Of a DNA stretch of 53,612 nucleotides, positions 2,766 to 44,650 are shown in pieces (within the stretch, counting starts at the first letter, position 1; the number at the start of each line of letters is the position of its first letter). Made by a program: the position numbers and the translations under genes. The DNA lies in the NCBI GenBank assembly GCA_964371005.1, contig CAYJNU010000001.1, forward strand, positions 27,104 to 80,715, in the 5' to 3' direction. The stretch is from an uncultured Verrucomicrobiota bacterium. GTDB taxonomy: Bacteria; Verrucomicrobiota; Verrucomicrobiia; Limisphaerales; MWDV01. The notes beneath the pieces were generated by a model that was given only the letters and a program-made list of their open reading frames with translations, was not told the DNA's origin and did no database searches.

Positions 2766-2769
2766 GATC

Positions 2770-18128: not shown

Positions 18129-18325
18129 GTGGCGAGGGTTTTACAGGCTTTGCTTTCCCATGCAAGGCTGATATGAAGCTGTGCGGAAGAACATGAAGGA
18201 CCAAGTCAACACCGCTCAGAAGGGCGGCATGGGTTTCATCGGTCGCGGACTCGTGCGCACCTCGATCACGCAAGGGAAACGCCTGAGTCTCCCATGCTTG
18301 GCCCTCCTTGCGGTTTTGCCTCTCC

Positions 18326-21233: not shown

Positions 21234-21557
21234 ATGCCATCGGAAGACGGTCATTTCGCACCACTACAGCTTGAACAAGCCATCCGGCGCCGTGCGCAGG
21301 TGATCAATGCCTTCAAAGAGGAGTTGATCCGGCGGCTAAACCTCCCTTTTGTCCCGGAAGACCTCCACGAAGATGTGTCACTGCTCGGTTCGGGGCTGGG
21401 GCTCGACTCGCTCGATGCGCTTGAGATCGTGCTTTGCATCGAACACTGCTTCCGCATCAAGATTCCCGACGAAAACATCGCCGTGCTGCGTTCAATCAAC
21501 ACCGTGGTGGATTTCATCATCGCCCAACAGGATGCCCAGGGAGGGAAGCCGGCATGA
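21234..21557 (+). CDS. Acyl carrier protein (phosphopantetheine attachment site)
   Basis: 'LLGSGLGLDSLDALEIVLCIEHCF' contains the DSL serine motif. It is 107 aa. Confidence 0.85.
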   Translation: MPSEDGHFAPLQLEQAIRRRAQVINAFKEELIRRLNLPFVPEDLHEDVSLLGSGLGLDSLDALEIVLCIEHCFRIKIPDENIAVLRSINTVVDFIIAQQDAQGGKPA

Positions 21558-22663
21558 GGATCTCGTTGCTTAAAGAGAAGCTGGCCGCCGCCGGGGCGTC
21601 ATTCCGCGAACGAGCCGGAACGGAAGTCGTTTCGCACTTCGCCGAACCGCCCACCGAGTATCGCGCGGTGCGCGATGCCGTGGCCCTGACGGATTTCTCC
21701 TTCGTCCGGTCTTTCCGCCTGCCCGAAGACAAGGGGCTGGATTTCCTGGACGCCCTCCTGGCCGGCAACGTGCCCAAGATCCGCTTTGGCCGGGCGCTGC
21801 ACACGATGATGCTTAACAGTGAGGGGCTGCTGGCAGGCGATTGTCTCGTAGCCAATAACGACCAGGAATTCGTCTTTCTGTGTGAGAGCATCGTGCCTGA
21901 CGTCGAAATAGATGCGCTGATGCAAGCGGCGGGCGTCGCGGACGCGGGACACGAAGAACTCACATCCAGCCATGTTTTGCTCAGCTTGGACGGCTACAGG
22001 GCATGGGAAGTCGTGAAGCGGCAATTTGGGCCGGATGTGCTCGGGCTGCCGTATCTGTCCATCGAGAACTACACTTTCGATGGTTCGCCGGTGCGGCTGT
22101 TCCGCGCGGGCAAGACCTCCGAGTTCGGCTACCTGATCCTGGCGCCCCAGAGCGTGGCCGTCGCATTGTTCGACACACTCAAGACCGAGGTGGAGCAATG
22201 TGAAGGACGCTTGTGTGGCGTGGACATTCACGACGAGTTACGGTTGGAAGGGCGTTTTTTCAACATTCACCAAGAAGGCCTGCGCGTGCGCGATCCGCTG
22301 CCGCTCGGCCTTCAGTGGATGGTGGATTTGGAGAAGGACAATTTCACGGGTGTTGCAGCGCTGAAGCAACGCCGGGCGGCGGGTCTCAAACAGAAGATCG
22401 TCGGCGTCGCGGCGGAGACTGATTGCCAATCGCTCAAGGCCGGGGCCCAAGTTTTCCATGAGGGCAAACCGGTGGCGGAAGTAGTAGCACACTGCTTCTC
22501 ACATGTCCTCAACCGCCCGCTCGGACTGGCGCTGTTCCCGATCGAGTTGGCCTATTCTGGACTCTCATTTCAACTCGGTGCGGCCGGCGGGCCGGCGATC
22601 ACGACCATCTCGATGCCGCCGATCATGCCCAAGAGTTTGGGTGTCAAACTCGACGAGATGTAA
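21554..22663 (+). CDS. GcvT/aminomethyltransferase-family folate-binding protein
   Basis: ATGA overlap with the ACP stop. 'EYRAVRDAVALTDFSFVRSFRLPEDKGLDFLDALLAGNVPKIRFGRALHTMMLNSEGLLAGDCLV' follows the T-protein N-terminal pattern, and the size (369 aa) fits. The internal ATG of ORF 21434..22663 was chosen. Confidence 0.7.
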   Translation: MRISLLKEKLAAAGASFRERAGTEVVSHFAEPPTEYRAVRDAVALTDFSFVRSFRLPEDKGLDFLDALLAGNVPKIRFGRALHTMMLNSEGLLAGDCLVANNDQEFVFLCESIVPDVEIDALMQAAGVADAGHEELTSSHVLLSLDGYRAWEVVKRQFGPDVLGLPYLSIENYTFDGSPVRLFRAGKTSEFGYLILAPQSVAVALFDTLKTEVEQCEGRLCGVDIHDELRLEGRFFNIHQEGLRVRDPLPLGLQWMVDLEKDNFTGVAALKQRRAAGLKQKIVGVAAETDCQSLKAGAQVFHEGKPVAEVVAHCFSHVLNRPLGLALFPIELAYSGLSFQLGAAGGPAITTISMPPIMPKSLGVKLDEM

Positions 22664-22669
22664 GCTGCC

Positions 22670-23116
22670 GTGGTGACCGCCCGCCATGCCGCTCCAGGCC
22701 GGCTGATCAAACGCCGAATCCCGATCACGCCGGCGTTTCATGAGACCGACATGATGGGCGTGGTGCACAACTCGGTCTATTTCCTGTGGTTCGAACAAGG
22801 ACGGCTCCAAATCATGCTGGAGGTATTGCCAATTGAGGAAGCCCTTGCGCTCGGCGTCGCCATGCCGGTGGTTGAAAACGTCTGTCATTATCGCAAGCCG
22901 GTGAAGTTCGGTGCGCCGCTCCTCCTCTACACCACGCATCACATCCAGCCCGCCTACGAAGGTCGGCTCGTCTTCCACCACTACCTGATTCACGAGAAGC
23001 ACCGCACGGCGATGGCCTGGGGGCAAACCGCCACCACGCTGGTGGAGGCAAACACCAACCGTCTGGTGAAAGACTGGCCCACCGACCTCTGGCAGCGCTA
23101 TCAGGCGCTGGCTTGA
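22670..23116 (+). CDS. Hotdog-fold acyl-CoA/acyl-ACP thioesterase (YbgC/4HBT family)
   Basis: 'FHETDMMGVVHNSVYFLWFEQGRLQIM' is the catalytic Asp block of 4HBT-type thioesterases. GTG start. Confidence 0.8.
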   Translation: MVTARHAAPGRLIKRRIPITPAFHETDMMGVVHNSVYFLWFEQGRLQIMLEVLPIEEALALGVAMPVVENVCHYRKPVKFGAPLLLYTTHHIQPAYEGRLVFHHYLIHEKHRTAMAWGQTATTLVEANTNRLVKDWPTDLWQRYQALA

Positions 23117-23150: not shown

Positions 23151-23894
23151 ATGGAACGCGAATTTGAGAATCAGGTCGTGCTCGTCACCGGCGGCTCGCG
23201 AGGCATAGGCCGGGCCGTCGTCGAGCGGTTTGCCGCCCGCGGCGCAAAAGTCTTCTTCACCTACCACCAACAGGAGGAGCAGGCTCGCGAGGTGGCGGCG
23301 GCTTGTGGCGCCGTGGCCATGCAGTGTTCGCAGACAGACCCCGCCGCCATCGAAGCCGCCGTGCGACGCGTATCGACCGAGGGCGGGAAGATTGACGTGC
23401 TCGTCAACAACGCCGGCGTCACGGCGGACATGTTCCTGATGCTCATGCCGGCAGACGATTGGAACAAGGTGCTGGACACGAACCTGAACGGAGCGTTCCG
23501 CTGGTGCAAGAACGTCATCCGCCCAATGCTCCTGGCGCGCAAAGGCTCGATCATCAACGTCGCCTCCATCTCCGGCCTCGTCGGCGTCATGGGCCAGACC
23601 AACTACGCCGCGTCCAAAGGCGCGTTGCTGGCTTTCTCCCGTTCGCTGGCTGCTGAGGTCGGCCCCAAGGGCATCCGCGTGAACGCCGTCGTGCCCGGTT
23701 TCATTGAGACCGACATGACCGCGCGCGTGCCCCGTCAGATCAAGCAGCGCAATCTGGAGCACATTCTTCTGAAACGCTTCGGACAACCCGCAGAGGTTGC
23801 GTCCGTCGTCACGTTTCTCGCCTCGGAAGCGGCCTCTTACATCATGGGGCAAATGATCGTGGTGGACGGTGGCTTGACCGCTACCGCCGCGTGA
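23151..23894 (+). CDS. fabG: 3-oxoacyl-ACP reductase (SDR)
   Basis: '[11 protein letters not shown]' (TGxxxGxG), 'NNAGV' and 'YAASKGA' (YxxxK). It is 247 aa. Confidence 0.9.
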
Positions 23895-23904
23895 CCGTGC
23901 TCCG

Positions 23905-24891
23905 ATGAATGTCTTTCTATTCCCGGGCCAGGGTTCGCAAGAAATCGGGATGGCCGCCGACTTGTTCAAAGCGGATCCCTGCTTCCGTGACCTCGTTGCC
24001 TTCGCCGCCGGGAAGTCGGGAGCCGATTTGGAACGCATTTGCCTGCGCGGCCCCGAGCGGGAATTGATCCGGACCCGGAATCTGCAACCCTTGCTGGTCT
24101 GCGTTTCGCTGGGCTACCTGCGCCACTTGACCGAACGCGGAGTCCGGTCGGATTGTGTCCTCGGCCATTCGCTGGGTGAAGTGACGGCGCTGGCGGCAGC
24201 GGGCGTCATTTCCGCGGAAGCCGCCGTTGCGCTGGCAGCGGAACGCGGTCGCTTGATGGACGGAGCAGCGGCCCAAGTAGCGGGGGGCATGGTCGCCGTG
24301 ACCACACCGAATCGGGAACGGCTGGTGCAGTGGCTCGCCACAATGCCGCCCGAGCGTCTGGTTCTGGCGAATGACAATGCACCCACGCAACTCGTGCTCT
24401 CCGGCACCGTGGCTGCCTTGGAAGAAGTGGGGCGGTTCGTGGCGGCGGAGCGATTGGGGGCCTGCCGCAAATTGCCCGTGGCGGGTCCGTGGCACAGCCC
24501 GTTGATGGCAGAGGCGCAGCGCGCGTTCACCGGATGGCTGCAAGCGATTCCCTTTCGCGCGCCCGCCACCCCCGTCGTGTTCAACATCACGGGCAACCAG
24601 GAAGACGACCCCGCACGCATCCGCTCGCTTGCCGCCCGCAATCTCGCCGAGCCCGTTCGCTGGCGGACCAGCATGGAAACCGTGCGAACGATGCGACCAA
24701 CCACCCTGTTTGAGATCGGACCCGGCCGTGTGCTCGCGGGGTTGGCGCGAGCCAATGGCTTCGACGATGCCACCCGGATCGTTCACGTCAACAACCTGCG
24801 CGGCGTCGAGTTGGCGGTGGCGGCGAAGAATCCAGTGGACGTTGGCGGTCCAAATCGTTCATCGTCTTCGTCGTCAACCCCACCGGTTTAG
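23905..24891 (+). CDS. fabD: Malonyl-CoA:ACP transacylase
   Basis: 'FLFPGQGSQ' and 'GHSLGEVTALAAAG' form the acyltransferase GHSxG motif. Confidence 0.9.
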   Translation: MNVFLFPGQGSQEIGMAADLFKADPCFRDLVAFAAGKSGADLERICLRGPERELIRTRNLQPLLVCVSLGYLRHLTERGVRSDCVLGHSLGEVTALAAAGVISAEAAVALAAERGRLMDGAAAQVAGGMVAVTTPNRERLVQWLATMPPERLVLANDNAPTQLVLSGTVAALEEVGRFVAAERLGACRKLPVAGPWHSPLMAEAQRAFTGWLQAIPFRAPATPVVFNITGNQEDDPARIRSLAARNLAEPVRWRTSMETVRTMRPTTLFEIGPGRVLAGLARANGFDDATRIVHVNNLRGVELAVAAKNPVDVGGPNRSSSSSSTPPV

Positions 24892-24898
24892 ACGGGCG

Positions 24899-26737
24899 AT
24901 GCGGGTTGCCATCACAAACGACACAACGACACAGATGGATTCAGCCGCCGTTTCGGAAGTCAACCGGGCCAACATCCCGCCAGCAGAACAACGCCTGAGC
25001 GCTCGCTCGTCGCCCGTCGCCATGCAATTGCCAGGACGCAACGGCCACCGGCTTACCGTCCGGCTGGCCACAGAGCGGGACCGCGAGACCATCTACCGGG
25101 TACGCCATGAGGTTTATGCCCGGGAGCTGGGCCAGCATCACCCCAACGACGCGGGCCGCCTGACGGATGCACTCGACACGTTCAACGCCTACATTGTGAT
25201 TTCCGAAGGGGATACGGTGGCGGGCTTCGTTTCCATCACGCCGCCGGGCAGCCCGAGTTTCTCCATCGACAAGTATCTCCGCCGCGATCAACTCCCGTTC
25301 CCGTTCGACGACCGCCTCTTCGAAGTACGCCTGCTCACCGTCCCGGAGACGAAGCGCCGCCGACTGCTCGCGCTGGCGCTGATGTATGCCTCGTTCCGCT
25401 GGGTCGAAGCCCACGGCGGCACCAGGATTGTGGCCATCGGCCGCCGCGAGGTTTTCAGCATGTACGAGCGCGTGGGGCTCAAGCCCATTGGCCTCACCGT
25501 GCAATCCGGTGCTGTCACCTACGACGTGATGCAAACCACGATGCCGGAGGTTCACGCCGCGTTGCCCGGCATTCGTGGCATGCTTGACCGCATCCAGGCC
25601 GAAATGGCTTGGGACATCGGCGTTGCTTACGACACCCCGGCAGCCTGTTATCACGGCGGCGCCTTCTTCGACGCCGTAGGCGACGAATTCGGCTCGCTGG
25701 AGAAACTCGACACCATCATCAACGCCGACGTGCTGGATGCCTGGTTTCCGCCGTCGCCACGTGCGGTAGCAGCGCTTCAGGAGAATCTCCCACAGCTCCT
25801 GCGCACCTCGCCCCCGACCGGATGCGAAGGGCTGGTGCGCGCCATCGCGCGCACGCGCGGGGTGACACCCGATTCTATCCTGCCGGGCGCGGGTTCGTCC
25901 GACCTCATCTTTCTCGCCTTGCGCTACTGGCTGACACCGCAATCCCGCGTGCTGATTCTGGACCCCACGTATGGCGAGTACGCGCACGTCCTGGAAAAGG
26001 TCATCCGCTGTCGTGTCGAACGTTTGCGACTGCACCGCAACGAACATTTTCGGCTGGATCCGCGCCGCTTGGAGGCCCAGTTCGCGCACGACTACGATCT
26101 GGTTGTGCTGGTAAACCCAAACAGCCCCGCCGGCCAGCACGTTCCGCGTGCCGACCTGGAGCGGGTGTTGCGCGCCGCCCCGTCCCACACGCGGGTCTGG
26201 GTGGACGAAACCTACGTGGACTACGCCGGGCCGGGTGAAACGTTGGAGGCATTCGCCGCGGCCTCGGAGAACGTGATCGTGTGCAAGTCCATGTCGAAAA
26301 CCTACGCGTTGAGCGGCGCGCGGGTGGCGTATTTGTGCGCGGGGCCGCACCAACTGGAATCCCTGCGCCCGCTGACGCCGCCATGGGCGGTCAGCCTGCC
26401 CGCGCAGGTGGCGGCGGTGAAGGCCCTGGAGGACGTGGACTACTACGCGGCGCGCCATGCCGAAACGCACGGGTTGCGTGAGGATCTCGCCAAAGGGTTA
26501 CAGGCGCTCGGCTGGGACGTGCTGCCCAGCATGGCCAATTATCTCCTCTGCCATTTGCCGGCGGAGGGGCCGGACGCGGCGACGGTTGTCGCGCGCGGTC
26601 GGGAACGCGGTTTGTTCCTGCGGGACGCGGCGACGATGGGCTCGCAACTGGGCGACCGCGCGATCCGCGTCGCCGTGAAAAATGCCGCGACGAACGAGCG
26701 GATGCTTCAAATTCTGGGCGGTGTCTTGCGCGCCTGA
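24899..26737 (+). CDS. Fusion protein: GNAT-like N-acyltransferase domain plus class I/II PLP aminotransferase (HisC/CobD-like) domain
   Basis: N-terminal half: 'RETIYRVRHEVYARELGQ...YIVISEGDTVAGFVSITPP...RRRLLALALMYASFRWVEAHGGTRIVAIGRREVFSMYERVGLKP' (acyl-amino-acid-synthase/GNAT-like). C-terminal half: 'ADVLDAWFPPSP...ILPGAGSSDLI...VNPNSPAG...CKSMSKTYALSGARVAYL' (PLP lysine block). The ATG at 24899 inside ORF 24629..26737 was chosen. Confidence 0.7.
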   Translation: MRVAITNDTTTQMDSAAVSEVNRANIPPAEQRLSARSSPVAMQLPGRNGHRLTVRLATERDRETIYRVRHEVYARELGQHHPNDAGRLTDALDTFNAYIVISEGDTVAGFVSITPPGSPSFSIDKYLRRDQLPFPFDDRLFEVRLLTVPETKRRRLLALALMYASFRWVEAHGGTRIVAIGRREVFSMYERVGLKPIGLTVQSGAVTYDVMQTTMPEVHAALPGIRGMLDRIQAEMAWDIGVAYDTPAACYHGGAFFDAVGDEFGSLEKLDTIINADVLDAWFPPSPRAVAALQENLPQLLRTSPPTGCEGLVRAIARTRGVTPDSILPGAGSSDLIFLALRYWLTPQSRVLILDPTYGEYAHVLEKVIRCRVERLRLHRNEHFRLDPRRLEAQFAHDYDLVVLVNPNSPAGQHVPRADLERVLRAAPSHTRVWVDETYVDYAGPGETLEAFAAASENVIVCKSMSKTYALSGARVAYLCAGPHQLESLRPLTPPWAVSLPAQVAAVKALEDVDYYAARHAETHGLREDLAKGLQALGWDVLPSMANYLLCHLPAEGPDAATVVARGRERGLFLRDAATMGSQLGDRAIRVAVKNAATNERMLQILGGVLRA

Positions 26738-26744
26738 ATGCACT

Positions 26745-27833
26745 TCAGGTGGCGGGCGGTGGAAAAAACCGTTCCAGTCGCGCAAACAAGGATCTGTCTC
26801 CCTCCAACTCAATCTGACGTTGGGTCAACGCCTGACGCGCATCGGTCTGCCGGGTGAAGAGGCCCGCCCACACCGCTGCGGTACAACGAACGCGCAGATC
26901 CGGGTCCGTTGCGGCCCCTTCCACCAACTCGCATCGTCCGCGGTCAATTCGGACCTGATACACGAGGTCCGGCTCGCGGAACTCGAACTGCAGGACCGCC
27001 CGCACCCGGGCCGCCGCCTTCGCGTCGAAAAAGCGCACCATCTCGCGCATGAGGATGCGCACGTCCGCGGAGACCTGCTTCTGCACTTCGGCAGGGTCCA
27101 AGCCCGTTTCGCGCAACGCCTCGGCGCGTCTCCAGTAGATGTTTGAGTAGGTGCGGAAATGCTCGGGTGACGCCGCCAGCGGCAGTGCCACCGCCTCGGT
27201 GGTTTCCGCCGTCAATCTCCCGGTCGTGCCGGCCTCGCGCCCCGCCTGAACAAACGCCGTCTCGATCCGCTTCAGCGTCTTCGGTTTCGAGAGCGGATAA
27301 TCCAGCAGATACGATTCCGGCCGTGTCAGTTGGCCGCCGAGTTCCAGATCCAAGCTGTCGGCAATGAGTTGGAAGGTGGCATTCAGTGGCTCGTACGGCT
27401 CCGGGCCGGGCAATGCGCCGGTTACGATGGTGATCAACTTCTTGTGGCGCCAGCGGCGCGGGAAACGCACGCTGTTGCGCGTCAGGCCGCGCGCGGAACG
27501 GACGACGCCGGGCGCAAACAACGGGAACGTGCGCTCAAACCAAGTCTTCAGCAACGCGCTCATCGAGTAGAAGTAGAGTGGCGTCACGCACACGATCACG
27601 TCGGCGTCGAGCACCTGTTCGAGCTGCGCGCCCATGTCATCGCCGTGGACGCATTGACCGGGCGTGACCAGCCAGCAGTGAAAACAACCGAGACAGGGCT
27701 GAACGGAAAGCGCCGAGAGGTCCGTGCCGGTCACCTTTGCCCCGACCTCGTGCAGGCCCTGGAGAAAGAGATCCGCGACGCGCTGCGTGTAGCCATGCTT
27801 GCGCGGATTGCCTCGCACCAGCAGCACCTTCAT
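26745..27833 (-). CDS. Fusion protein: iron-sulfur flavoprotein-like FMN reductase domain plus SCP2 sterol/lipid-carrier domain
   Basis: 'MKVLLVRGNPRKHGYT' is a flavodoxin-like NADPH-FMN-reductase start. The compact Cys motif 'CLGCFHCWLVTPGQC' (CX2CX2CX7C) is present. The C-terminus 'LQFEFREPDLVYQVRIDRGRCELVEGAATDPDLRVRCTAAVWAGLFTRQTDARQALTQRQIELEGDRSLFARL' is SCP2-like. Confidence 0.7.
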   Translation of the reverse strand: MKVLLVRGNPRKHGYTQRVADLFLQGLHEVGAKVTGTDLSALSVQPCLGCFHCWLVTPGQCVHGDDMGAQLEQVLDADVIVCVTPLYFYSMSALLKTWFERTFPLFAPGVVRSARGLTRNSVRFPRRWRHKKLITIVTGALPGPEPYEPLNATFQLIADSLDLELGGQLTRPESYLLDYPLSKPKTLKRIETAFVQAGREAGTTGRLTAETTEAVALPLAASPEHFRTYSNIYWRRAEALRETGLDPAEVQKQVSADVRILMREMVRFFDAKAAARVRAVLQFEFREPDLVYQVRIDRGRCELVEGAATDPDLRVRCTAAVWAGLFTRQTDARQALTQRQIELEGDRSLFARLERFFPPPAT

Positions 27834-28297
27834 GCGCCGCCCTCGATTTGTGCCAGCGTCAAGACGCCGCTGGCAATCACGTTCCGCCCCACCGTGGCCT
27901 CCACGTTGAACCGAAACAATCCGCCGAAGCTCTTGTCGCTCGCCGATCGCAGCACCAGCACGTCGCCAGGCCTGGCCGGGTGGGTGAACTTCACATTGGT
28001 CGTGGCCAGGAAGAACATCTTCGGCCGCTCTGGCGGCGTGGCAGCAGCCAGCTTGTCGCTCAACCCAAGCAGCAGCCCGCTGGTTTGGGCGAGTGCCTCC
28101 GCCACCAATACGCCCGGCATGATGGGGCGGCCGGGAAAGTGCCCGGCGAACTGCGGCTCGTCGGAACGCAGCTCGCGTTCGGCGACGATGGATTTGTAGG
28201 CCTCCAGCCTGACCACGCGATCTACGAACAGGAACGGCGCCCGGTGCGGGAGCAGCGACAGCAGCTCGTCTCGGTTGAAAAGCGGTTGCTCAGTCAT
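27830..28297 (-). CDS. fabZ: 3-hydroxyacyl-ACP dehydratase
   Basis: 'LLPHRAPFLFVDRV' and 'FAGHFPGRPIMPGVLVAEALAQ' are canonical FabZ motifs. ATGA overlap with the downstream gene. Confidence 0.85.
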   Translation of the reverse strand: MTEQPLFNRDELLSLLPHRAPFLFVDRVVRLEAYKSIVAERELRSDEPQFAGHFPGRPIMPGVLVAEALAQTSGLLLGLSDKLAAATPPERPKMFFLATTNVKFTHPARPGDVLVLRSASDKSFGGLFRFNVEATVGRNVIASGVLTLAQIEGGA

Positions 28298-29108
28298 GAT
28301 TCTCAGGGGTGCGGTTTTCCCAGCAGGTCCCGACGTCCAACGCGTTCAACGCGCGCGCCATCCGCCGATGCACCCGGTCGCACAATGTGTTCGCGTCATC
28401 GTCGGGAGCCGGCGGCTCGGGGTCAAGGAAGTGGATGCGATAATCATTGCGACCGCGGGGAAACACGCTCCCCGGCAACTTCGCCATGAACGGCTGTGTG
28501 GAGTGGACGATGACCGGCACGACCGGAACTCGGGCCGCCTGCGCCAGTTGAAAGGCCAACGCATTGAACCGCTGCAGGCGTCCGTTGCGCGCCCGCGTGC
28601 CTTCGGGAAACACGAGCAGGCTGCGGCCCTCGGCAAGCACGCGCCGGCACTTCTCCAGCGAAGCGCCGACGGAACGGAGCGAATGCCGGTCCAGGCTGAC
28701 GAGATCAAAATACTTCGCCAACAAGGCGTACATGGGCTGCCGTGTGTCCCGCGACTTGATCACCACGCCCAGATGCGGCACCAAGCCAAGCAACAAAATG
28801 GCGTCCATGAAGCCGCGATGATTGGCCACCACCACGGCCGGGCGCGCCGCCAGCACCCGATCCAGTCCGGCGATTCCCGCAACGCGATAGACGCCGATGA
28901 CCGGCAACCAGCCGCGGGTGAACAGAGCCAGATAACGGTGAATCAGCGCGTGGATCGTGCGATGACGCGCCCGCGGAAACGGCAATAACACCAGGAGCAC
29001 GGGCACCAGACACAGGACGAACACGCCTTTCGAGACGACGTAGCTCAGATAGCCCAGCGAGCAGCACAGCACCGTCAATGGCAAGCAGCGTTCGCCGGAC
29101 GACTTCAT
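28290..29108 (-). CDS. PlsC-type lysophospholipid/glycerol-phosphate acyltransferase
   Basis: 'VVANHRGFMD' (HX4D) and 'LLVFPEGTRARNG' (FPEGTR), with N-terminal TM helices. Confidence 0.8.
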   Translation of the reverse strand: MKSSGERCLPLTVLCCSLGYLSYVVSKGVFVLCLVPVLLVLLPFPRARHRTIHALIHRYLALFTRGWLPVIGVYRVAGIAGLDRVLAARPAVVVANHRGFMDAILLLGLVPHLGVVIKSRDTRQPMYALLAKYFDLVSLDRHSLRSVGASLEKCRRVLAEGRSLLVFPEGTRARNGRLQRFNALAFQLAQAARVPVVPVIVHSTQPFMAKLPGSVFPRGRNDYRIHFLDPEPPAPDDDANTLCDRVHRRMARALNALDVGTCWENRTPENHD

Positions 29109-30793
29109 GGGGCTTTCACCGGGGCCGCCGCAAGCTTGGCGGCCAGGGCTTCGATCTGCTTTCGTTCACCCGCCAGCGCGGGCTTGCCCGCGAGCGCTGC
29201 CTGACACGCGGTGGCCGCCGCCGAGAACTTGCCCTGCCGCGAGAGCGCTTCGGCAAGCAGCCAACTGTTGCGATAGAATCCCGGATTGTTCGTTTCCGCG
29301 GTGCGCGCCTGAGTCGCCGCAGACTCAATGTCGCCGCGTGCCAGGGCCTGTCGTCCTGCCTCCAGCGCCGCAGTGGCCACGCGGTACCGCTCGAACTCGC
29401 CGCTGGCGAGGATCGGATCTTCCGCCACCGCTTGTTCCGGCAGCACCGTACCCGGCGCGCTCAGGTCGAACGCCACGAAACGACCCAGTTGATGCGGCGG
29501 AAGCGACGCCCAGAATACCCCTGCCGTCAGGTCCATCACCACCGAGTGCGTCGCGATCAGCGGGTTCAAGGTACTGCGATGGCCGTTGCCGGGAAACGCG
29601 CCGCAGGGCAACCGACGGTCGCGGAGGAAAGCGGCGCACTGTGCAGCGTCAACCGGTCTGGACGTTCCTTCGATGAGTTCACGCAGCCGGTCGTAACGCG
29701 CAACCGAGGTGTCCACACGCTTGAATTCCTCGTTGAGCGGATCGTCTTTCAACGCGTCCGTCAGATAGTGATTCGCACAGACGATCCAAGGCTCGTCACC
29801 AGGCTCGCGCACCGCCATGGTGTCCGGCGTCTTCTCGATCACCACGAACCGCCCATCCTTGCGGCTGCCCACGAGAAAGAGCGCGGAGACAAACACCTGC
29901 CGCTTCTGAATGATCGCCTTCGCTTCCTCGATCGTGCGGGCGTGCTGCAACACCTCGCGCGCGACCAAGCACGTCGGCGTCGCGGCGTCGCCGGGCAGGT
30001 GCGAGGGCGCGCCGTTTACGGTCACGGACAAGCCCTCACGGTTCATCCCCGAAACACAACCCGCCATGCCCGCCCACGCCAAAGAAATGAAGGGAATGCC
30101 GTTCGCCGGTTCGCAGATGATCAGAATGCGGTCTTCGTCGAAGATGGGATCGGCTTCCCAATCGAAGTTACGCCCCGCCAGCAAGTGCCCATCGCGCGTG
30201 CGGTCACCCCACGCGCCGAAGGCCGTGCAGCCGCGGCGAATCAGCGGACTGTTCATCAGCATGTAGGAGATGTCCTGCGCCGCGTGGTAGTTCAGCAACC
30301 GGAAATAGAATGGGCCGACCTCCGGATGCGGGTCGCGACAGCCCAAGCTCAGGCCGAGGATTTCCAGTTGTTGATCCGCAGTGATGTGCTCCGGTAGATG
30401 GCGATTCTTATAGACGACGATGAACTTCAAAAGGAACTGCGTCCAGCGATAGGGCGCGACGCGGTGGAACAGGCCCAGCACGGTCTCCTCCTGACGCTCG
30501 ACGTATTTCTGTGTCAGCGCGCCGTTGGCGTAGCCCATCTCGAACGGCGTACCCTTGAGATAAAGCACCGGCAGGCCCTCGACTTTGCCAAACCAGCTCT
30601 GCCCCAGATACACCCGTCCGTCCCGCGACTCAGGCGTGAGCTCGGTGATCGCCGTGTTGACCGGCAGTGGCGGCGGTTTCGCCACCCAGAGGTGCATGAG
30701 CGCCACCATGCCAAGCCATGTGGCGAGCAGCAGTCCGACAAGGCTGCCTGTCACCCAAAGCAGCCGGCGACGCCACTTGTGTTGTCCTCTCAT
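29105..30793 (-). CDS. C45-family Ntn acyltransferase/hydrolase (acyl-CoA:6-APA acyltransferase-like) with an N-terminal TM helix and a C-terminal TPR-like region
   Basis: 'NSPLIRRGCTAFGAWGDRTRDGHLLAGRNFDWE' matches the Gly-Cys autoprocessing/nucleophile block (C189). The N-terminus is 'LLWVTGSLVGLLLATWLGMVALM'. The C-terminus 'ALEAGRQALARGDIESAATQARTAETNNPGFYRNSWLLAEALSRQGKFSAAATACQAAL' is TPR-like. Confidence 0.6.
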   Translation of the reverse strand: MRGQHKWRRRLLWVTGSLVGLLLATWLGMVALMHLWVAKPPPLPVNTAITELTPESRDGRVYLGQSWFGKVEGLPVLYLKGTPFEMGYANGALTQKYVERQEETVLGLFHRVAPYRWTQFLLKFIVVYKNRHLPEHITADQQLEILGLSLGCRDPHPEVGPFYFRLLNYHAAQDISYMLMNSPLIRRGCTAFGAWGDRTRDGHLLAGRNFDWEADPIFDEDRILIICEPANGIPFISLAWAGMAGCVSGMNREGLSVTVNGAPSHLPGDAATPTCLVAREVLQHARTIEEAKAIIQKRQVFVSALFLVGSRKDGRFVVIEKTPDTMAVREPGDEPWIVCANHYLTDALKDDPLNEEFKRVDTSVARYDRLRELIEGTSRPVDAAQCAAFLRDRRLPCGAFPGNGHRSTLNPLIATHSVVMDLTAGVFWASLPPHQLGRFVAFDLSAPGTVLPEQAVAEDPILASGEFERYRVATAALEAGRQALARGDIESAATQARTAETNNPGFYRNSWLLAEALSRQGKFSAAATACQAALAGKPALAGERKQIEALAAKLAAAPVKAP

Positions 30794-31515
30794 CGCCGGA
30801 CTCCTTCGGAGGTTGGAGCAGCCGTGGCAGAAACGGCCAAGTCAACGATGCGCAAGTCGAGCTGGTACGCCCCGGCTTGGACATGGAACTCTGCGGGCAT
30901 CCCAGCGGCCCCACCAAACGTGCGATACCGAGATATCTCAGCACGCCAGAAGGGGCGTTCCTGCTGCGCGAGTTCCACCATTTCCAGTTTGCACCCGGCG
31001 TTGTCGAGGACATAACGCGCGATCATTCTGTCCTCCGTCGGCTTGGTTTGCATCACCATTCGACCGTCCGGCATCATGCCGGCCGCAACCAGCTCCGGCG
31101 GCGGCACAAACAGCCAGCGCAGGTCACGCGCGACGAATTGCCGCGCCCAGTCTTCGCGGAACAAAGGTGTCACCTGGCGCACCTCGGTGTCTCCGTTGTG
31201 ACTCACGCGCACGGCGGTCACCACGCCGAGATTGCTGACCAACGCGAGATCATATCCGGCCGCGGCAACAGACAGAACGCCGTCGCAAGTAAACTGTTTG
31301 CTCCCGACCCGGATGATGGCCCGTTGCACGGCGCGATACTGTGGCGGGAAAAGTCTCGCCACGGTGCGTCTGGCTTGTTCAACCCTCGTCGTCTCCAACG
31401 GCACGGCCTCCGTCACTGCCAAAGGCAGGAGTTTGCGGCTCGTCACGCAACCACAGGCCACCAGAGCCAGCAGAAGGCTCGACAACAGTGTTGAAACAGT
31501 CTTCGCGCTGCTCAC
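30790..31515 (-). CDS. Lipoprotein of unknown function (possibly DUF3261-like, as found next to LolA-like genes in aryl-polyene-type clusters)
   Basis: Signal peptide with lipobox 'LLLALVACG'. GTGA overlap with the upstream LolA-like gene and ATGA overlap downstream. The family assignment is by context only. Confidence 0.5.
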   Translation of the reverse strand: MSSAKTVSTLLSSLLLALVACGCVTSRKLLPLAVTEAVPLETTRVEQARRTVARLFPPQYRAVQRAIIRVGSKQFTCDGVLSVAAAGYDLALVSNLGVVTAVRVSHNGDTEVRQVTPLFREDWARQFVARDLRWLFVPPPELVAAGMMPDGRMVMQTKPTEDRMIARYVLDNAGCKLEMVELAQQERPFWRAEISRYRTFGGAAGMPAEFHVQAGAYQLDLRIVDLAVSATAAPTSEGVRR

Positions 31516-32216
31516 GGCTGCTTGGTGTTCTGGGATGCGGCGGCTCGAATTTCCGTCATCCCGACGGGTGCGCTACGATCAAATGCCTTGGCCGGAAACG
31601 CCACGCCAATCGTTTGCTCACTGAATCGGATGTCCGTGAAATCGCCGCCCGTTTCTCGCAAGACCACTCGCCGCGTGGCCTTGAGGTCGGGCGCAAGATG
31701 CACCTCGATTGCTCGCATCACCTTCCGCATCTTTTCGTTGCGGGGAGTGAGCTGGACAACGACTCCGTCCGATGAATTGGTCAGCGCCACCGCGTAATCG
31801 CGGCTCTCGCTGGCGTAGCGGCCTTCCATGATCCCGGCGATCTGGGCGATGACATTTTGCATCGCGGCGGCCAATCCCATGTCGAGCTTCTTCCACTTCT
31901 CGTCTGTCCACTCGAACTGCGCCACGCCCGAGCCGTCGGAAATCAGAATGGATTGATACGGCTGCGTGACTTCCCAACGGATGCGTCCCGGTTTCTGAAA
32001 GCACAACCACCCTTCCGAGCGCAGAGGTTCGTTAAACAGCGACAGATGCCGCTCTTGGACGAAGCGGCTCAGGACGCAATCCGCCCGGCCCAGCGCCTGG
32101 CTGACCTCGGCCAGCGAAACAGCAGCCGCGTTCGTGGCTTGGGCCGCAGCCAACCGGGCGAACCCGAGCGCTACCAGCACCACCAGGACACCGAGTGTGT
32201 TCGAAAATCTATTCAT
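31512..32216 (-). CDS. LolA-like outer-membrane lipoprotein/lipid carrier protein
   Basis: Signal peptide 'MNRFSNTLGVLVVLVALGFARLAAAQA'. 'FVQERHLSLFNEPLRSEGWLCFQKPGRIRWEVTQPYQSILISDG' follows the LolA pattern. ATG 32216 was chosen (8-nt overlap with the upstream stop); the ORF is open to 32285. Confidence 0.7.
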   Translation of the reverse strand: MNRFSNTLGVLVVLVALGFARLAAAQATNAAAVSLAEVSQALGRADCVLSRFVQERHLSLFNEPLRSEGWLCFQKPGRIRWEVTQPYQSILISDGSGVAQFEWTDEKWKKLDMGLAAAMQNVIAQIAGIMEGRYASESRDYAVALTNSSDGVVVQLTPRNEKMRKVMRAIEVHLAPDLKATRRVVLRETGGDFTDIRFSEQTIGVAFPAKAFDRSAPVGMTEIRAAASQNTKQP

Positions 32217-32994
32217 TGGGTTCCTCGCACTCGACCAGTTCATCCAGCCGCAGGCATTCGTACCCGGCGGATTGGAGCCGGTCAATCAGCATTGAAACCG
32301 CGGCCAGCAACCGCTCCACCGGCCCCCCGCCATCGTGCAACAGCAAAACCGCGCCCGGGCGCAAACCCCGCAGCAGCCGGCTGACAATCTGTTCCGGCGT
32401 ATCAGCCAGCCGCGAATCCAAACCACGCGCCGTGTAGCCGGTCACGCGCAGGTTCAGCTCGCGTGCGACCCGGAATACGCGCTGGTTGCTCAATCCCATC
32501 GGCGGCCGAAAGAACCGGGGCGCCTGGCCAGTGGCCTGGCGGATGGCCTCCTGCGCCTCGGCAAGCTCCCCGCGCAGCCGCGCCACGCTAAACAGGTTCG
32601 TCCCGCGATGATGCCGGTGTGAGTGATTTTCGACCAGATGCCCCTCGGCGACCACGCGGCGGACGAGTTCGGGATGCTGCGCTACACGTTCGCCCACGCA
32701 GAAGAACGCCGCCTTCACCTGCCGTTTCGCCAGCAAGTCCAACAGCGCCGGCGTGGCGACCGGGTCTGGGCCGTCGTCGAACGTCAGGCCAACCACGCGC
32801 CGCGTGGTGCGGACGCGGCAAAGGCTCGGGCCGAACATTCGCCACTGAGGAAAGGAAACGCCCAGCCCGACGGTGAGCCCAGCGACACAGCAAAGCACGA
32901 TCAATAAACCCCATCGCTGCGGGCCGTGCGTTTGCCAGATGATCAGTGCGGCCAGAAGAACCGTGCCGACGACGAGACATTGGTAGCGGGTCAC
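32209..32994 (-). CDS. Polysaccharide deacetylase (NodB homology domain), membrane anchored
   Basis: 'VGLTFDDGPDP' and 'VENHSHRH' are NodB motifs 1 and 2, and two N-terminal TM helices are present. GTG 32994 forms a GTGA overlap with the KS-CLF stop; the ORF is open to 33159, so the start is uncertain. Confidence 0.8.
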   Translation of the reverse strand: MTRYQCLVVGTVLLAALIIWQTHGPQRWGLLIVLCCVAGLTVGLGVSFPQWRMFGPSLCRVRTTRRVVGLTFDDGPDPVATPALLDLLAKRQVKAAFFCVGERVAQHPELVRRVVAEGHLVENHSHRHHRGTNLFSVARLRGELAEAQEAIRQATGQAPRFFRPPMGLSNQRVFRVARELNLRVTGYTARGLDSRLADTPEQIVSRLLRGLRPGAVLLLHDGGGPVERLLAAVSMLIDRLQSAGYECLRLDELVECEEPNE

Positions 32995-35519
32995 GCGCAC
33001 ACGCAACAAACCGCTTTGCCGCCGCCCGGCGACAGGGTGTAGAGAACGATCTTCCGGCAACGCTGAACGGGCACACCTGGCAACACAAGTTCGCCGTGCA
33101 CCAGTCCCACCGCCACGTAGAAACCGAACGCGGAGGCGGAATGATGCTCGCCAGAACACTGTTTGTAGGCCGCCGCCGGCATCGCATGACCAGCCAGCTT
33201 GGAGAGCGCACCGGCCACCGTCTGATATGCCTCATCGCCCAAACGGGGGACCTGACCGCCGTAGAACCGACTTGGAGTCTGCCGTATCGCAGAATTGCAT
33301 TCTGCAGAAGGCCCGCGAGTGTCTGAAGCGCTGGAAGTCCCGAAGCCTTGCCGATTACAAATCGGCGATACGGCAGATTCAGAATCTGCGCTCCCTTTCT
33401 CGCCGTTGGCGCCCGTCAGCAACAGATCCACTTCTCCCAAGCGAACACCGGCAGCCGTCAGCGCTTCTGCAATCCAGCGCGCCTCAGCGGCGGCGTCAAA
33501 CGTTGGTTCAGTGAGCTGCCCCAACCGGATTGCGGAAACCCAGGCCAGCGGATGAGCAGCGTGTTCGGGACGCGCCAGCGCAAACATGGCGCAGCCTTCA
33601 CCCGGCAACGCCCGCTGGCGACCTTGCGGCGCGGAAGCAAAGGGTCGCACCGCAGGCGTTTGTTCGTTCCACCATCCCCACCGTCTTCCCGCGGCCAGAT
33701 GATGCGGATTCAACTCGTCCCCGGCTCCGACCAGCGCCGCGTCTGCCCGACCCGCGGCGATTTCGCGCGCGCCCTGCCAAAGTGCAGATTCAAAGCAGAT
33801 GCCACGCTGAACCGAAGTCGAATTCAATCCGCGCAGTTCCAGTTCAATGGCGATTTGCGAGGCGAGGCCGTTGTGAACCGAGTTCGTGAAGAAGAGGGGA
33901 CGCGGCGCACGCTCGTCCTTCGCAATCAGGTTCTCGACGAAGGCCGCCGTGTCGTTCAAAGAACCGAGTCCTGTTCCGACGGCCACGCAGATACGGTCAG
34001 GCGGCACGCCCGGCAGTGCGTCCGCAGGCAGGCACTGCTTGGCTGCCACAAGCGCCATTTGTTGAAGCCGGTTCAGCTTCCGCCGTTTCGCAGAATCGAG
34101 CGCCTGTTCGGCGCCAAAATCGCCGCAGGCATAAACGGGAATCGCGCCCCGTCCCGGGGCAAGCCAGGTTTCGGCGACCGACAACTTCGCACCGCCGCGT
34201 TCTACAGCCTCGCGTATTGCCGCGGTCGAGTTACCCGCCGCGCTTACCGCTGCGGCGCCGATGATCGCCAGGCGCGCAAGCGGCCCGGCGTTCTCCTCCA
34301 CCATGATGACGGCCGGCGCAGCATCGGCGCGGGAGAAAACGAGGGCGACGTTGTTCCCGCCGAAGCCGAAGGAGTTGCTCAAGATGTGGCGAACCGGAAG
34401 TCCTCCAAACTCGCGCACCGGCTCGAACCCGACTTTCGGATCGGATTGCTCGAACCCCAGGCTCGCGGGCACGGCCTGTTGCCGCAATGCCTCGACGCAG
34501 AGCACGGCCTTGATCGCTCCACTCGCCGCCAGGGTGTGGCCGAAGAAGCGCATCATCGAGCCGACCGGTGGCAGCGCGTCACCGAACAGTCGTCTCAAAG
34601 CACGCGCCTCTGTGGCGTCGTTGTCCGGCGTGCCGGTGCCGTGGGCACTGACGTAGCCGACGTCGCCCACCGTCCTTCCAGCGCTGTGCAGCGCGGCCTG
34701 CATGGCGGCGAGCGCGCCGCGGCCTTCCGGATGCGGCGCCGTGGCATGCCAAGCGTCGCAACTCGCGCCCCAGCCTTCAAGTCGCGCCAGGATTTGCGCG
34801 CCGCGCACGCGGGCGGATTCCTCGGATTCCAGCACCAGCATGCCGGCGCCTTCGCCGAGACTGATGCCGGTGCGCCGCGCGTCGAAGGGTCGGCAACCAT
34901 TCGGGTCGAGAAGTAGCAGTGAGCCGAAGCCGTTCAGCGTGAGGCGGCAAAGCGAGTCGCCGCCGCCAACCAACGCGAAGTCAGCTTCGCCACTTTCGAT
35001 CAGGTCCGCGCCCATGGCCAAAGCCATTGCCCCCGCAGCACAGGCGGCGGACACGGTGGTGCAGACCCCTTTGGCGCCAATCTGGCGAGCGCACAATTCA
35101 GCGGCGCCGGCGCACTCATGAAACCGCAGCGGGCCAAAGCGGGAGCGATGTTCTCGCAGCAGCGTGGAGAGGACCTGTTCAGTGCTTGGCATTCCGCCCA
35201 CGGTGCTGCCAATGACCACGGCCATGCGGTCTGGCGATAGCGGGTGGGGCACTTGGTTGAATCCAGCCGCGGTCAGTGCTTCCCGGGCGGCGATCCAGAC
35301 CAGTTTGTCCGATCGCGAGCCGCGGACGTTGCCGGCCAGCGCGTTCACATCTTCGCGAACCTCGCCGACGAGGTGTTGCCCAAACCGGGGCGAGGGAAAG
35401 CGGGTGAGCGAACCGAGGCCGGATCGGCCGGCACGGAGGGATTGCCAAACCTGCGGAACGCCACAGCCCGCCGCACAGATGACGCCCGTGCCAGTGATGA
35501 CTGGGCGCCGCCGGGTCAT
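32991..35519 (-). CDS. Fused beta-ketoacyl synthase plus chain-length-factor-like domain (KS-CLF, 842 aa)
   Basis: The N-terminal half has 'VSAACAAGAMAL' (active Cys), 'SAHGTGTPDNDATE' and 'GHTLAASG' (His/His). The C-terminal half is KS-like but has 'SVQRGICFESAL' where the Cys block should be, and lacks the His pair. Confidence 0.85.
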   Translation of the reverse strand: MTRRRPVITGTGVICAAGCGVPQVWQSLRAGRSGLGSLTRFPSPRFGQHLVGEVREDVNALAGNVRGSRSDKLVWIAAREALTAAGFNQVPHPLSPDRMAVVIGSTVGGMPSTEQVLSTLLREHRSRFGPLRFHECAGAAELCARQIGAKGVCTTVSAACAAGAMALAMGADLIESGEADFALVGGGDSLCRLTLNGFGSLLLLDPNGCRPFDARRTGISLGEGAGMLVLESEESARVRGAQILARLEGWGASCDAWHATAPHPEGRGALAAMQAALHSAGRTVGDVGYVSAHGTGTPDNDATEARALRRLFGDALPPVGSMMRFFGHTLAASGAIKAVLCVEALRQQAVPASLGFEQSDPKVGFEPVREFGGLPVRHILSNSFGFGGNNVALVFSRADAAPAVIMVEENAGPLARLAIIGAAAVSAAGNSTAAIREAVERGGAKLSVAETWLAPGRGAIPVYACGDFGAEQALDSAKRRKLNRLQQMALVAAKQCLPADALPGVPPDRICVAVGTGLGSLNDTAAFVENLIAKDERAPRPLFFTNSVHNGLASQIAIELELRGLNSTSVQRGICFESALWQGAREIAAGRADAALVGAGDELNPHHLAAGRRWGWWNEQTPAVRPFASAPQGRQRALPGEGCAMFALARPEHAAHPLAWVSAIRLGQLTEPTFDAAAEARWIAEALTAAGVRLGEVDLLLTGANGEKGSADSESAVSPICNRQGFGTSSASDTRGPSAECNSAIRQTPSRFYGGQVPRLGDEAYQTVAGALSKLAGHAMPAAAYKQCSGEHHSASAFGFYVAVGLVHGELVLPGVPVQRCRKIVLYTLSPGGGKAVCCVCA
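33279..33390. repeat. Composite palindromic element embedded in frame in the CLF-like domain
   Basis: A 13-bp inverted repeat TCTGCCGTATCGC (33279-33291) / GCGATACGGCAGA (33366-33378). There are also three perfect 7-bp/3-nt-loop hairpins at 33290-33306, 33351-33367 and 33374-33390. GC content is locally lower. Confidence 0.7.
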
Positions 35520-35773
35520 GACTTGCGGTTGGCGGCGACGAACTCCGCCAAGGCGGTGACCGACGCGAACGCCTTGTCGGCGACCTGCCGCTCCTGGATG
35601 ATGATGCCGTAGTCCTGATCCAGTAGCGCCACCAACTCCAGCGCGTCAATCGAGTCCAGCCCCAAGCCGGTACCGAACAGTGGTTCGTCGGCCTTGATGT
35701 CGGCGGGCTTCACGCTGTCGAGGTTCAACGCGGAGATGATCTTGGCTTTGAGTTCTTCAATCAGGCTTTCCAT
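35516..35773 (-). CDS. Acyl carrier protein
   Basis: 'LFGTGLGLDSIDALELVALLDQDYG' contains the DSI/DSL serine motif. It is 85 aa, with an ATGA overlap with the downstream KS-CLF. Confidence 0.9.
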   Translation of the reverse strand: MESLIEELKAKIISALNLDSVKPADIKADEPLFGTGLGLDSIDALELVALLDQDYGIIIQERQVADKAFASVTALAEFVAANRKS

Positions 35774-35800
35774 AAACGGCGCGGCAAGGGTAACGGTGGC

Positions 35801-37873: not shown

Positions 37874-38337
37874 GCGTTAAGGCGTTCGATCATGAATGGC
37901 GGCCAGGTGAGTATCAATTCACCGTCCGGCTTGGTGAAGACTTGCACGGTTCTGCCGGTCGCCAGCAAGGTCGGCTCGCCTTCACGGTGAATCTCGTAGG
38001 TAAACTCCAACCGCGCCGCGTCGGATTGCCACAAACGTGCCGTCACCTCCAGCACGTCCGCCATGCGCGCCGGCACAAGGTAATCTACCTGAAGCTGCAC
38101 GACCGGCGCGGCGGTGTTGTTCTCGAAGAACACCGGGTAATCGAGTCCATACCGGCGGCCCCAAGCGCGGCGGGCTTCCTCGAAGAAGTTCGCGTAGTGC
38201 CCATGCCAGACGATGCGCAACGCATCCACCTCGTTGAAACGCACGCGGACGGTGGTCCGCTCTTCCAGATACGGACGCGCGGCATGGGACGGCTGGGCGA
38301 GCGTGGGACGGCGGCGTGGAGCGTCGGGCGGTTTCAT
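37831..38337 (-). CDS. Hotdog-fold thioesterase (4HBT family)
   Basis: 'VRVRFNEVDALRIVWHGHYANFFEEARRAWGRRYG' is the 4HBT catalytic Asp block. ATGA overlap with the upstream acyltransferase gene. Confidence 0.75.
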   Translation of the reverse strand: MKPPDAPRRRPTLAQPSHAARPYLEERTTVRVRFNEVDALRIVWHGHYANFFEEARRAWGRRYGLDYPVFFENNTAAPVVQLQVDYLVPARMADVLEVTARLWQSDAARLEFTYEIHREGEPTLLATGRTVQVFTKPDGELILTWPPFMIERLNAWATLWKSPTTLLR

Positions 38338-40936: not shown

Positions 40937-41077
40937 GATTTACTTCAAGCAACCCGGTGAGGTCTGAGCGCGTCGCGCTGCTACGCACTTGCCCAACGCT
41001 CGGTTCGTGAACGATGTGGAGGCTAGCCTTCGTGGTATGGGGTATGCAAACGAATGTTGTGCCTTCAGCCCACGATT

Positions 41078-44644: not shown

Positions 44645-44650
44645 GTTCAC

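Follow-up and report, generated by a model that had tools for sequence, protein, structure and literature searches.

What is the function of a protein in which an N-acyltransferase and an aminotransferase are joined in one chain, when its gene closes an operon that starts with an acyl carrier protein (ACP)? The question was raised by a stretch of DNA of 53,612 nucleotides (nt) from an uncultured Verrucomicrobiota bacterium (GenBank assembly GCA_964371005.1, contig CAYJNU010000001.1, positions 27,104 to 80,715, forward strand), referred to below as the window. A single gene in it encodes a LuxI/FeeM-like N-acyltransferase domain followed by a HisC/CobD-family domain that depends on pyridoxal 5'-phosphate (PLP). 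We propose, with a probability of roughly 0.55, that the product is a self-contained two-step enzyme, in which the PLP domain would make a small amine and the N-terminal domain would N-acylate it from a carrier-protein thioester. The gene and its parts are listed below with the evidence for each.

24899..26737, + strand: complete gene for the two-domain protein P0001, 612 amino acids (aa); open frame, Pfam matches in both domains, fused frame in at least 583 species
24899..25045, + strand: variable, probably disordered N-terminal extension, residues 1-49; homologues unaligned before about residue 50, predicted local distance difference test score (pLDDT) <50 at residues 1-48
25046..25603, + strand: LuxI/FeeM-like N-acyltransferase domain, residues 50-235; Pfam FeeM, Acetyltransf_5 and Acetyltransf_1, AlphaFold2 (AF2) model, Foldseek
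25322..25330, + strand: codons of E142-V143-R144 in strand beta-4; E142 and R144 without variation in 85 sequences (8 phyla or more)
25604..25750, + strand: linker helix and conserved arm, residues 236-284; alignments and lists of invariant residues
25751..26734, + strand: HisC/CobD-family fold-type-I PLP domain, residues 285-612; Pfam, NCBIfam, PDB and Foldseek
26297..26299, + strand: codon of K467, the PLP Schiff-base lysine in the motif SMSK; aligned with the SLTK lysine of CobD 1lc5 and invariant

The translation of 24899-26737 (+ strand) ran through 612 residues with no internal stop, in agreement with the single open reading frame (ORF) of the initial annotation, and all four peptide strings quoted there were found in it. 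GC contents at the three codon positions were 0.67, 0.51 and 0.78, which is a typical coding pattern (window GC 63%), and a 509-aa antisense ORF opposite the gene was treated as a shadow ORF. The start codon is uncertain: it could be M1, M13 or M42, and the domain architecture is the same with each. That two separate genes had been joined by a frameshift or misassembly, a possibility raised at the outset, was excluded by the recurrence of the fused frame in hundreds of independent assemblies.

The distribution of the fusion was determined in a scan of one genome per species, in which at least 599 matching stretches were found and 583 confirmed; no fewer than 583 species-representative genomes thus have the fusion. 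When 5.8 billion proteins were searched, more than 120 protein clusters matched, with 62-84% identity and a query coverage of 81-99%, and both domains were already present in the precomputed annotations of many of them. The best 80 species matches all spanned approximately residues 50-610, at 52-72% identity. Carriers were mostly metagenome-assembled genomes of Verrucomicrobiota, together with bins of Acidobacteriota, Nitrospirota, Planctomycetota, Gemmatimonadota, Omnitrophota, Hydrogenedentota, Binatota and Pseudomonadota. Carriage was patchy: the fusion occurred in 3 of 200 genomes sampled from the phylum, in 2 of the 40 nearest relatives and in 0 of 3 genomes of the same genus, and it therefore behaves as an accessory gene. 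The initial annotation had allowed that the architecture might be common and already characterised. The first part held, as the species count indicates; the second did not, the family itself being uncharacterised. Its members are labelled histidinol-phosphate aminotransferase in public annotation and N-acyl-L-homoserine lactone synthetase-like in IMG.

Two observations were made on the assemblies themselves. The contig of locus L022 (GCA_039725825.1, JBCLBK010000001.1) is an inverted duplication and almost perfect as such: the fusion and all its flanking genes are present twice, as mirror images, and a palindromic assembly artefact seems likely. The contigs of L041, L056 and L082, on which the operon is of the Verrucomicrobiota type, were titled 'uncultured Bifidobacteriaceae bacterium', and that of L080 Akkermansia muciniphila; these bin labels look unreliable.

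The N-terminal domain had been called GNAT-like (GCN5-related N-acetyltransferase) from the sequence, and a FeeM/LuxI-like acyltransferase fold was indeed found. In the protein-level Pfam search FeeM (PF21926) matched residues 65-199 with 26.1 bits (gathering cut-off 27); in the six-frame search of the genome it scored 29.7 bits, above the 27-bit cut-off, and a PF21926 hit is precomputed for many relatives. The AF2 model of the domain alone had a pLDDT of 83. Its best Foldseek matches were the acyl-homoserine lactone (AHL) synthases BjaI, RpaI, TofI, MesI, LasI and EsaI (BjaI: E 1e-9, query-normalised template modelling (TM) score 0.70), plus FeeM 2g0b (E 3.3e-7, TM-scores 0.60-0.64). The OlsB equivalog model of NCBIfam gave 11.3 bits (E 0.17), below its cut-off of 320 bits, and an exosortase-type N-acyl synthase model matched marginally (E 1.7e-4).

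These structural matches, the finding that RpaI was the sole PDB sequence match of the domain and the AHL-synthetase-like names in IMG all favour a true LuxI-type synthase, which would use S-adenosylmethionine (SAM) to make an AHL-like signal while the PLP domain processed the SAM-derived part. Several results speak against it, and we regard it as very improbable. In the alignment with RpaI, the Trp after RG, which we take to be the SAM-binding Trp34 of LuxI enzymes, falls on Q79, invariant in the fusion family, and Pfam Autoind_synth (PF00765) had no match on the protein. The PLP domain is of the HisC/CobD type and not of the 1-aminocyclopropane-1-carboxylate synthase type, and the genes that neighbour the fusion encode lipid acyltransferases, not LuxR regulators. 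Because the SAM-binding Trp is replaced by Q79 and there is no Autoind_synth match, the N-terminal domain is read as a FeeM/OlsB-like N-acyl synthase rather than an AHL synthase.

Residues of this domain that were invariant across the family (85 sequences) include R69, H70, E76, Q79, D90, E142, R144 and R153. We infer that E142 is the catalytic base; it is presumably the equivalent of Glu95 in FeeM and of Glu97/101 in LuxI. A library-wide search with the domain returned 728 representatives at E <= 1e-3. About 35 of the best 150 were full-length fusions, and the 728 also included a set of stand-alone proteins of 199-217 aa. Further architectures were PAP2_C::N-acyl synthase::PLP (P0260, 666 aa) and an OlsF-like fusion of a lysophospholipid acyltransferase (LPLAT) to the N-acyl synthase (P0147, 469 aa).

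For the C-terminal half, the initial annotation of a class I/II aminotransferase with a PLP lysine was confirmed, the domain belonging to the HisC/CobD family with its lysine in the SMSK motif. Aminotran_1_2 (PF00155) matched residues 285-603 (E 5e-38, 131.6 bits, cut-off 19.7). Of the NCBIfam models, CobD (TIGR01140) gave 188.7 bits against a cut-off of 290.55, with the match beginning at profile position 31, and HisC (TIGR01141) gave 180.6 bits against a cut-off of 276.55. PDB sequence matches were CobD 1lc5 (E 2e-24) and several HisC structures including 3hdo; in the AlphaFold model (pLDDT 81) the domain compared with CobD and HisC at target-normalised TM-scores of 0.82-0.88. A housekeeping HisC or CobD was rejected, as neither curated cut-off is reached and a bona fide hisC (334.6 bits) is encoded separately in the genome, on another contig. 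No CobD above cut-off was found elsewhere in the genome by profile search, and no cobalamin genes adjoining the fusion were found in Pfam scans of its neighbours.

The 85-sequence alignment, covering at least 8 phyla, held 75 invariant positions over the whole protein, among them the PLP set N406, N408, D436, Y439, S464, S466, K467 and R475. R575 and R590 were also invariant and aligned with the arginines of CobD in ...IRS... and ...YRVAIR...; in CobD and HisC these arginines presumably bind the substrate phosphate. Between the domains, helix 215-235 was modelled with confidence, and the linker and arm contributed the invariant residues W238, C250, H252, G253, G254 and F257 and the block A276-D277-V278-L279-D280-(A281)-W282. 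Judged from the PLP set, R575 and R590 and, in the acyltransferase domain, E142, R144 and R153, both domains look functional.

In the proposed scheme the C-terminal PLP domain would act first and make a small primary amine, most likely a phosphorylated amino alcohol; the LuxI/FeeM-like domain would then move an acyl chain from acyl-ACP to this amine, to give an N-acyl amino alcohol (phosphate). The same order had been given in the initial annotation and was kept, because PLP chemistry needs a free amine. Our first guess for the first step is a transamination, in which dihydroxyacetone phosphate (DHAP) and glutamate would yield serinol phosphate. This was proposed because the HisC/CobD family handles phosphorylated three-carbon units, the substrates being imidazole-acetol phosphate for HisC, threonine phosphate for CobD and serine phosphate for SMUL_1544. 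Chemical precedents inside this PLP family also favour the scheme, as does the formation of N-acyl serinols in E. coli from the Gemella nas gene alone. The second choice would be that phosphoserine or phosphothreonine is decarboxylated, with ethanolamine phosphate or aminopropanol phosphate as the product.

Taken as a reading of its own, the second choice makes the PLP domain a CobD-type decarboxylase of O-phospho-L-serine or -threonine, the product of which would be N-acylated to an N-acyl-ethanolamine-phosphate-type lipid. CobD was both the top NCBIfam match (188.7 bits) and the top PDB sequence match (1lc5, E 2e-24), and Foldseek aligned nearly the whole CobD chain (364-370 columns) at target-normalised TM-scores of 0.86-0.88, slightly above HisC. 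The serine-phosphate decarboxylase SMUL_1544 (6oux) was also among the matches. The NCBIfam score nevertheless falls short of the CobD cut-off by 100 bits, and nearly as many bits are obtained with the HisC model. The invariant H252-G253-G254 arm looks similar to the N-terminal HGG of CobD; the profile match, however, begins at position 31 and leaves the N-terminal arm unaligned, and a sequence search of the CYHGG arm against the CobD N-terminus gave no usable match. The one experimentally linked precedent, in which an N-acyl synthase is reported to be fused to an aminotransferase, yields serinol, and this calls for a transamination, not a decarboxylation. On balance a decarboxylase is unlikely, and transamination to serinol phosphate is kept as the first guess.

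Evidence that the two activities belong together came from genomes in which they are arranged differently. Locus L133 (4444-7651) carries a split form, consisting of a cytidine diphosphate (CDP)-alcohol phosphatidyltransferase gene, a gene for a hexapeptide-repeat::HisC/CobD-like PLP protein (596 aa) and a gene for a stand-alone N-acyl synthase of 216 aa. The last overlaps the stop codon of the PLP gene, and its product is 45% identical to the N-terminal domain of the window protein; the PLP domains are 22% identical. This arrangement supports functional coupling and an alcohol-phosphate substrate. In the three contexts of stand-alone N-domain proteins that were examined, a PLP gene was adjacent in one.

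A second arrangement was found in the genome of the window itself. On contig C469 (L035), a PlsY paralogue (1764-2414) is followed after a 3-nt gap by a gene for FeeM::class-V aminotransferase (2418-4067, 549 aa). Its FeeM-like domain is approximately 25-30% identical to the N-terminal domains of the fusion family, and FeeM::class-V-like frames of 536-595 aa were present in no fewer than 12 further genomes sampled from the phylum. Two unrelated PLP classes are thus joined to the same acyltransferase family, for which the simplest explanation is that the amine comes from the PLP domain. PlsY itself is a glycerol-3-phosphate acyltransferase; the partners PlsY, Aas, LPLAT, PAP2 and CDP-alcohol enzymes suggest that the amine resembles glycerol phosphate. 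No PlsY gene was found within 10 kb of the fusion in the best 80 species loci (of at least 583), to which all neighbourhood counts below refer.

The same arrangements bear on a non-catalytic role, in which the PLP domain would be a MocR/GabR-like sensor or a scaffold that controls or dimerises the acyltransferase. Sensor domains of the MocR type also keep the PLP-binding residues, and a MocR-like model was among the weak NCBIfam matches. The substrate arginines and the full active-site set are, however, invariant across phyla; in the split form the PLP domain has a gene of its own, coupled in translation to that of the acyltransferase; and the fusion of an unrelated class-V PLP domain to the same N-domain family is more easily explained by substrate supply. 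A sensor or scaffold was therefore ranked as the least probable of the readings considered, and the two-step enzyme was retained.

The fusion gene is the last of six genes on the same strand, its ATG lying 7 nt past the stop codon of FabD, so the initial placement at the end of an ACP/FabG/FabD operon was correct. The other genes of the operon and the larger units that flank it are as follows.

21234..21557, + strand: ACP1, first gene of the operon, with an intact GLDSLD phosphopantetheine attachment site; Pfam PP-binding, motif read
21554..22663, + strand: GcvT-family folate-binding protein; Pfam GCV_T and GCV_T_C, NCBIfam GcvT models far under cut-off
22670..23116, + strand: 4HBT (hot-dog fold) thioesterase; Pfam 4HBT_2
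23151..23894, + strand: FabG-type 3-oxoacyl-ACP reductase; Pfam adh_short_C2, NCBIfam FabG subfamily NF009466 above cut-off
23905..24891, + strand: FabD-type malonyl-CoA:ACP transacylase with a GHSLG active site; Pfam Acyl_transf_1, TIGR00128 218.5 bits (cut-off 260.9)
26745..42385, - strand: convergent flexirubin/aryl-polyene-like operon; Pfam scans
43616..48652, + strand: three radical SAM genes in a row, then a further ketosynthase (KS) gene; Pfam scan

The start of the GcvT-like gene overlaps the stop of ACP1 (ATGA, 21554-21557), and all operon copies examined kept the ACP-GcvT pair, those in clusters without the fusion among them. The FlxB model scored 236.5 bits on FabG against a cut-off of 340. 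In rising coordinates, that is, against the direction of transcription, the convergent operon encodes an FMN-reductase::SCP2 protein, an ApeP-like FabA, an LPLAT, a C45 acyltransferase, a 241-aa protein, a LolA-like protein, a polysaccharide deacetylase, a KS and chain length factor pair (KS-CLF), ACP2, a KS, a 4HBT protein, an LpxL-like acyltransferase, an aromatic amino acid ammonia-lyase (similar to tyrosine ammonia-lyase) and an AMP-ligase. ApeP-like and ApeI-like families match the orthologous dehydratase in L018, L020 and L021. With ammonia-lyase and ligase, KS/CLF, ACP, dehydratase, ketoreductase, LolA-like protein and LPLAT, the neighbourhood has the features of an aryl polyene/flexirubin-type cluster. 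The comparison with flexirubins drawn in the initial annotation is thus borne out by the genes of the convergent operon; the amide-linked head group suggested with it was overstated, though it is plausible. A related cluster exists without the fusion.

For the window protein, the acyl donor would probably be ACP1, loaded via FabD, KS and FabG. The product would probably be an amide-linked lipid or anchor, to which LPLAT and the LpxL-like acyltransferase may add further chains (including an aryl polyene) and which the LolA-like protein may export.

Two of the three radical SAM proteins have B12-binding domains, and one of these two (45997-47442, 481 aa) also has DUF4070. It is 34% identical to the B12 radical SAM protein encoded directly upstream of the fusion in L038; relatives of it were found in 9 of the 80 fusion loci, and in L016 a relative is fused to KS-CLF. 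A B12/DUF4070 radical SAM gene lies directly upstream of the fusion in 5 of the 80. On the other side of the operon, and adjoining it, the window encodes an HpnK-like YdjC deacetylase, an HpnI-like GT21 glycosyltransferase and an HpnJ-like B12 radical SAM protein (17418-20927). A hopanoid link through these hpnI/J/K-like genes was unsupported, as none of the three recurs beside the fusion in the 80 loci.

Across the family, the six-gene operon that includes the fusion was recovered in the metagenomic relatives L016, L018, L020 and L021 and in 9 of the 80 species loci; in 6-7 of these 9, and also in L018 and L020, the fusion is followed downstream by the aryl-polyene-like genes. The window protein fell, in a maximum-likelihood tree, in a clade of 15 sequences with a Shimodaira-Hasegawa-like approximate likelihood ratio test (SH-aLRT) support of 100, and 14 of the 15 carry the ACP operon. 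Identity between this clade and the rest of the family was 51% for the N-terminal domain and 63% for the PLP domain. The only clade-specific residue found was R154, which replaces G and adjoins the invariant R153; the loop with R153/R154 after strand beta-4 is, we assume, the one that binds the pantetheine arm in GNAT enzymes. This pattern of divergence, as read from the alignment, would be consistent with the same amine and a different acyl donor.

Outside the clade the settings varied. No universal neighbour was found among the 80 loci. The commonest neighbour was an Aas-type gene for LPLAT plus acyl-ACP synthetase, which adjoins the fusion in 12 of the 80, sometimes with a transporter gene of the major facilitator superfamily (LplT-like). 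A gene for NAD-epimerase accompanies the fusion in L019.

The settings also bear on a third alternative, in which the PLP domain would transaminate an ACP- or CoA-bound 3-oxoacyl chain or an aldehyde lipid, as for iturin-type beta-amino fatty acids, and the N-terminal domain would acylate the lipid amine. With FabD and FabG in the operon and KS/CLF nearby, 3-oxoacyl-ACP would be present, and a sphingolipid-like neighbourhood at one locus (L015) would allow the N-terminal domain to serve as a ceramide synthase. Most members of the family, however, have no KS, ACP or FabG nearby, and the two invariant arginines and the kinship with HisC/CobD point to a small phosphorylated or carboxylated substrate. 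The transaminases known for beta-amino fatty acids are of class III and not of the HisC family. Kinship with bacterial ceramide synthase was not found either: the FeeM profile had no match in the Caulobacter control genome, and a sphingolipid-like setting was seen in one locus only. Lipid transamination is therefore improbable, and a small phosphorylated amino alcohol remains the preferred product of the PLP domain.

The locus in question, L015 (G140:C4, 191-11211), was recorded as an observation in its own right. A MarR gene and the fusion are followed by genes for UbiA, a SPASM radical SAM protein, a lipid kinase of the diacylglycerol kinase type and an old yellow enzyme flavoprotein; a serine-palmitoyltransferase-like alpha-oxoamine synthase and an NAD epimerase/reductase are also encoded there.

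Two Verrucomicrobiota genomes, L126 (G374:C16) and L127 (G065:C8), carry B12-radical SAM, KS/CLF and ACP-GcvT-4HBT-FabG-FabD genes, followed by FMN-reductase::SCP2 and LPLAT genes, and have no fusion in the cluster. This makes the fusion a portable and optional addition to the cluster rather than one of its core genes. Across the loci examined it behaves as an independent module placed beside lipid-acylation genes.

The following points weigh against the two-step enzyme as proposed. The protein-level FeeM score is slightly below the Pfam cut-off, and most of the 80 loci have no conserved lipid-related neighbour. There is no real difference between the scores of the CobD and HisC models (188.7 and 180.6 bits), and at the level of sequence transamination cannot be separated from decarboxylation; which amine is made is a guess. 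The model gives no part to the conserved GcvT-like partner. A related cluster works without the fusion, so the link to an aryl-polyene product is circumstantial. Lastly, Gemella nas, Cj1437, Cj1436 and RtxA, which are drawn on below, were compared by description and not by sequence.

A more specific version was also considered, in which the clade enzyme would end a type II polyketide (aryl-polyene-like) line by moving the ACP-bound chain to an amino alcohol phosphate of its own making. This would give a so far undescribed class of amide-linked pigment phospholipids in the outer membrane of Verrucomicrobiota, with serinol phosphate instead of glycerol phosphate as the backbone, and the ACP-coupled GcvT-like protein would help to make or trim the head group. 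It is put forward as speculation that we think doubtful.

Hundreds of species carry the family, in phyla that are abundant in soil and freshwater but little cultured, and the label histidinol-phosphate aminotransferase hides a probable function in lipid biosynthesis. If the two-step enzyme is correct, N-acyl amino alcohol (phosphate) lipids, ceramide-like or lysophosphatidate-like, would be made by a single protein, and the window would show such a module attached to a pigment-type polyketide pathway.

The fusion was compared with four groups of known systems. In the initial annotation the architecture had not been recognised from any described pathway; this does not hold, the N-acyl serinol synthase (nas, hm-NAS) of Gemella haemolysans being the closest precedent. 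In work by Cohen et al. from 2017 the Gemella enzyme is said to be an N-acyl synthase fused to an aminotransferase predicted to make serinol. A literature search found no explicit description of the two-domain architecture of the Gemella enzyme. In one report, G. haemolysans nas alone gave N-oleoyl and N-palmitoyl serinol in E. coli (PMC13012048). Set beside the fusion family by description, nas is similar in that a single gene product both supplies the amino alcohol and N-acylates it. It differs in coming from a Firmicute of the human microbiome with no polyketide context, whereas the fusion family is environmental (Verrucomicrobiota, Acidobacteriota and others). The window fusion further differs in having its own ACP/FabD/FabG operon inside an aryl-polyene-like cluster, and its product may keep the phosphate.

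The second group is formed by FeeM and OlsB/OlsF. Enzymes of these types form amides in an acyl-ACP-dependent reaction. They share with the N-terminal domain the GNAT/LuxI-like fold and the N-terminal motif R-x-R-H-x-V-Y...E-L, and the LPLAT::N-domain protein P0147 mirrors the architecture of OlsF. Unlike the fusion, FeeM and OlsB/OlsF take ready-made amino acids and have no PLP domain.

The third group comprises PLP enzymes whose products are amino alcohol phosphates. Cj1437 (Campylobacter jejuni capsule) and RtxA's N-terminal domain (rhizobitoxine) are DHAP transaminases, and Cj1436, SMUL_1544 and CobD are serine- or threonine-phosphate decarboxylases. CobD and SMUL_1544 count, in both sequence and structure, among the solved proteins most closely related to the C-terminal domain. 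All five differ from the fusion in being stand-alone or differently fused, and in products that go to capsule, toxin or cobamide and not to N-acyl lipids.

The fourth group is the Ape and Flx clusters, with which the window shares an ammonia-lyase, an AMP-ligase, KS/CLF, two ACPs, an ApeP/ApeI-like dehydratase, FabG, 4HBT, LPLAT and a LolA-like carrier; no DarA/DarB-type resorcinol genes were seen in the window cluster. We know of no PLP enzyme, N-acyl synthase or GcvT-like protein in the Ape and Flx clusters described so far, and the window cluster also goes beyond them in its three radical SAM proteins, C45 acyltransferase and FMN-reductase::SCP2 protein. The architecture of the fusion has a described precedent, and what is new here is the recruitment of one of its clades into an aryl-polyene-type cluster.

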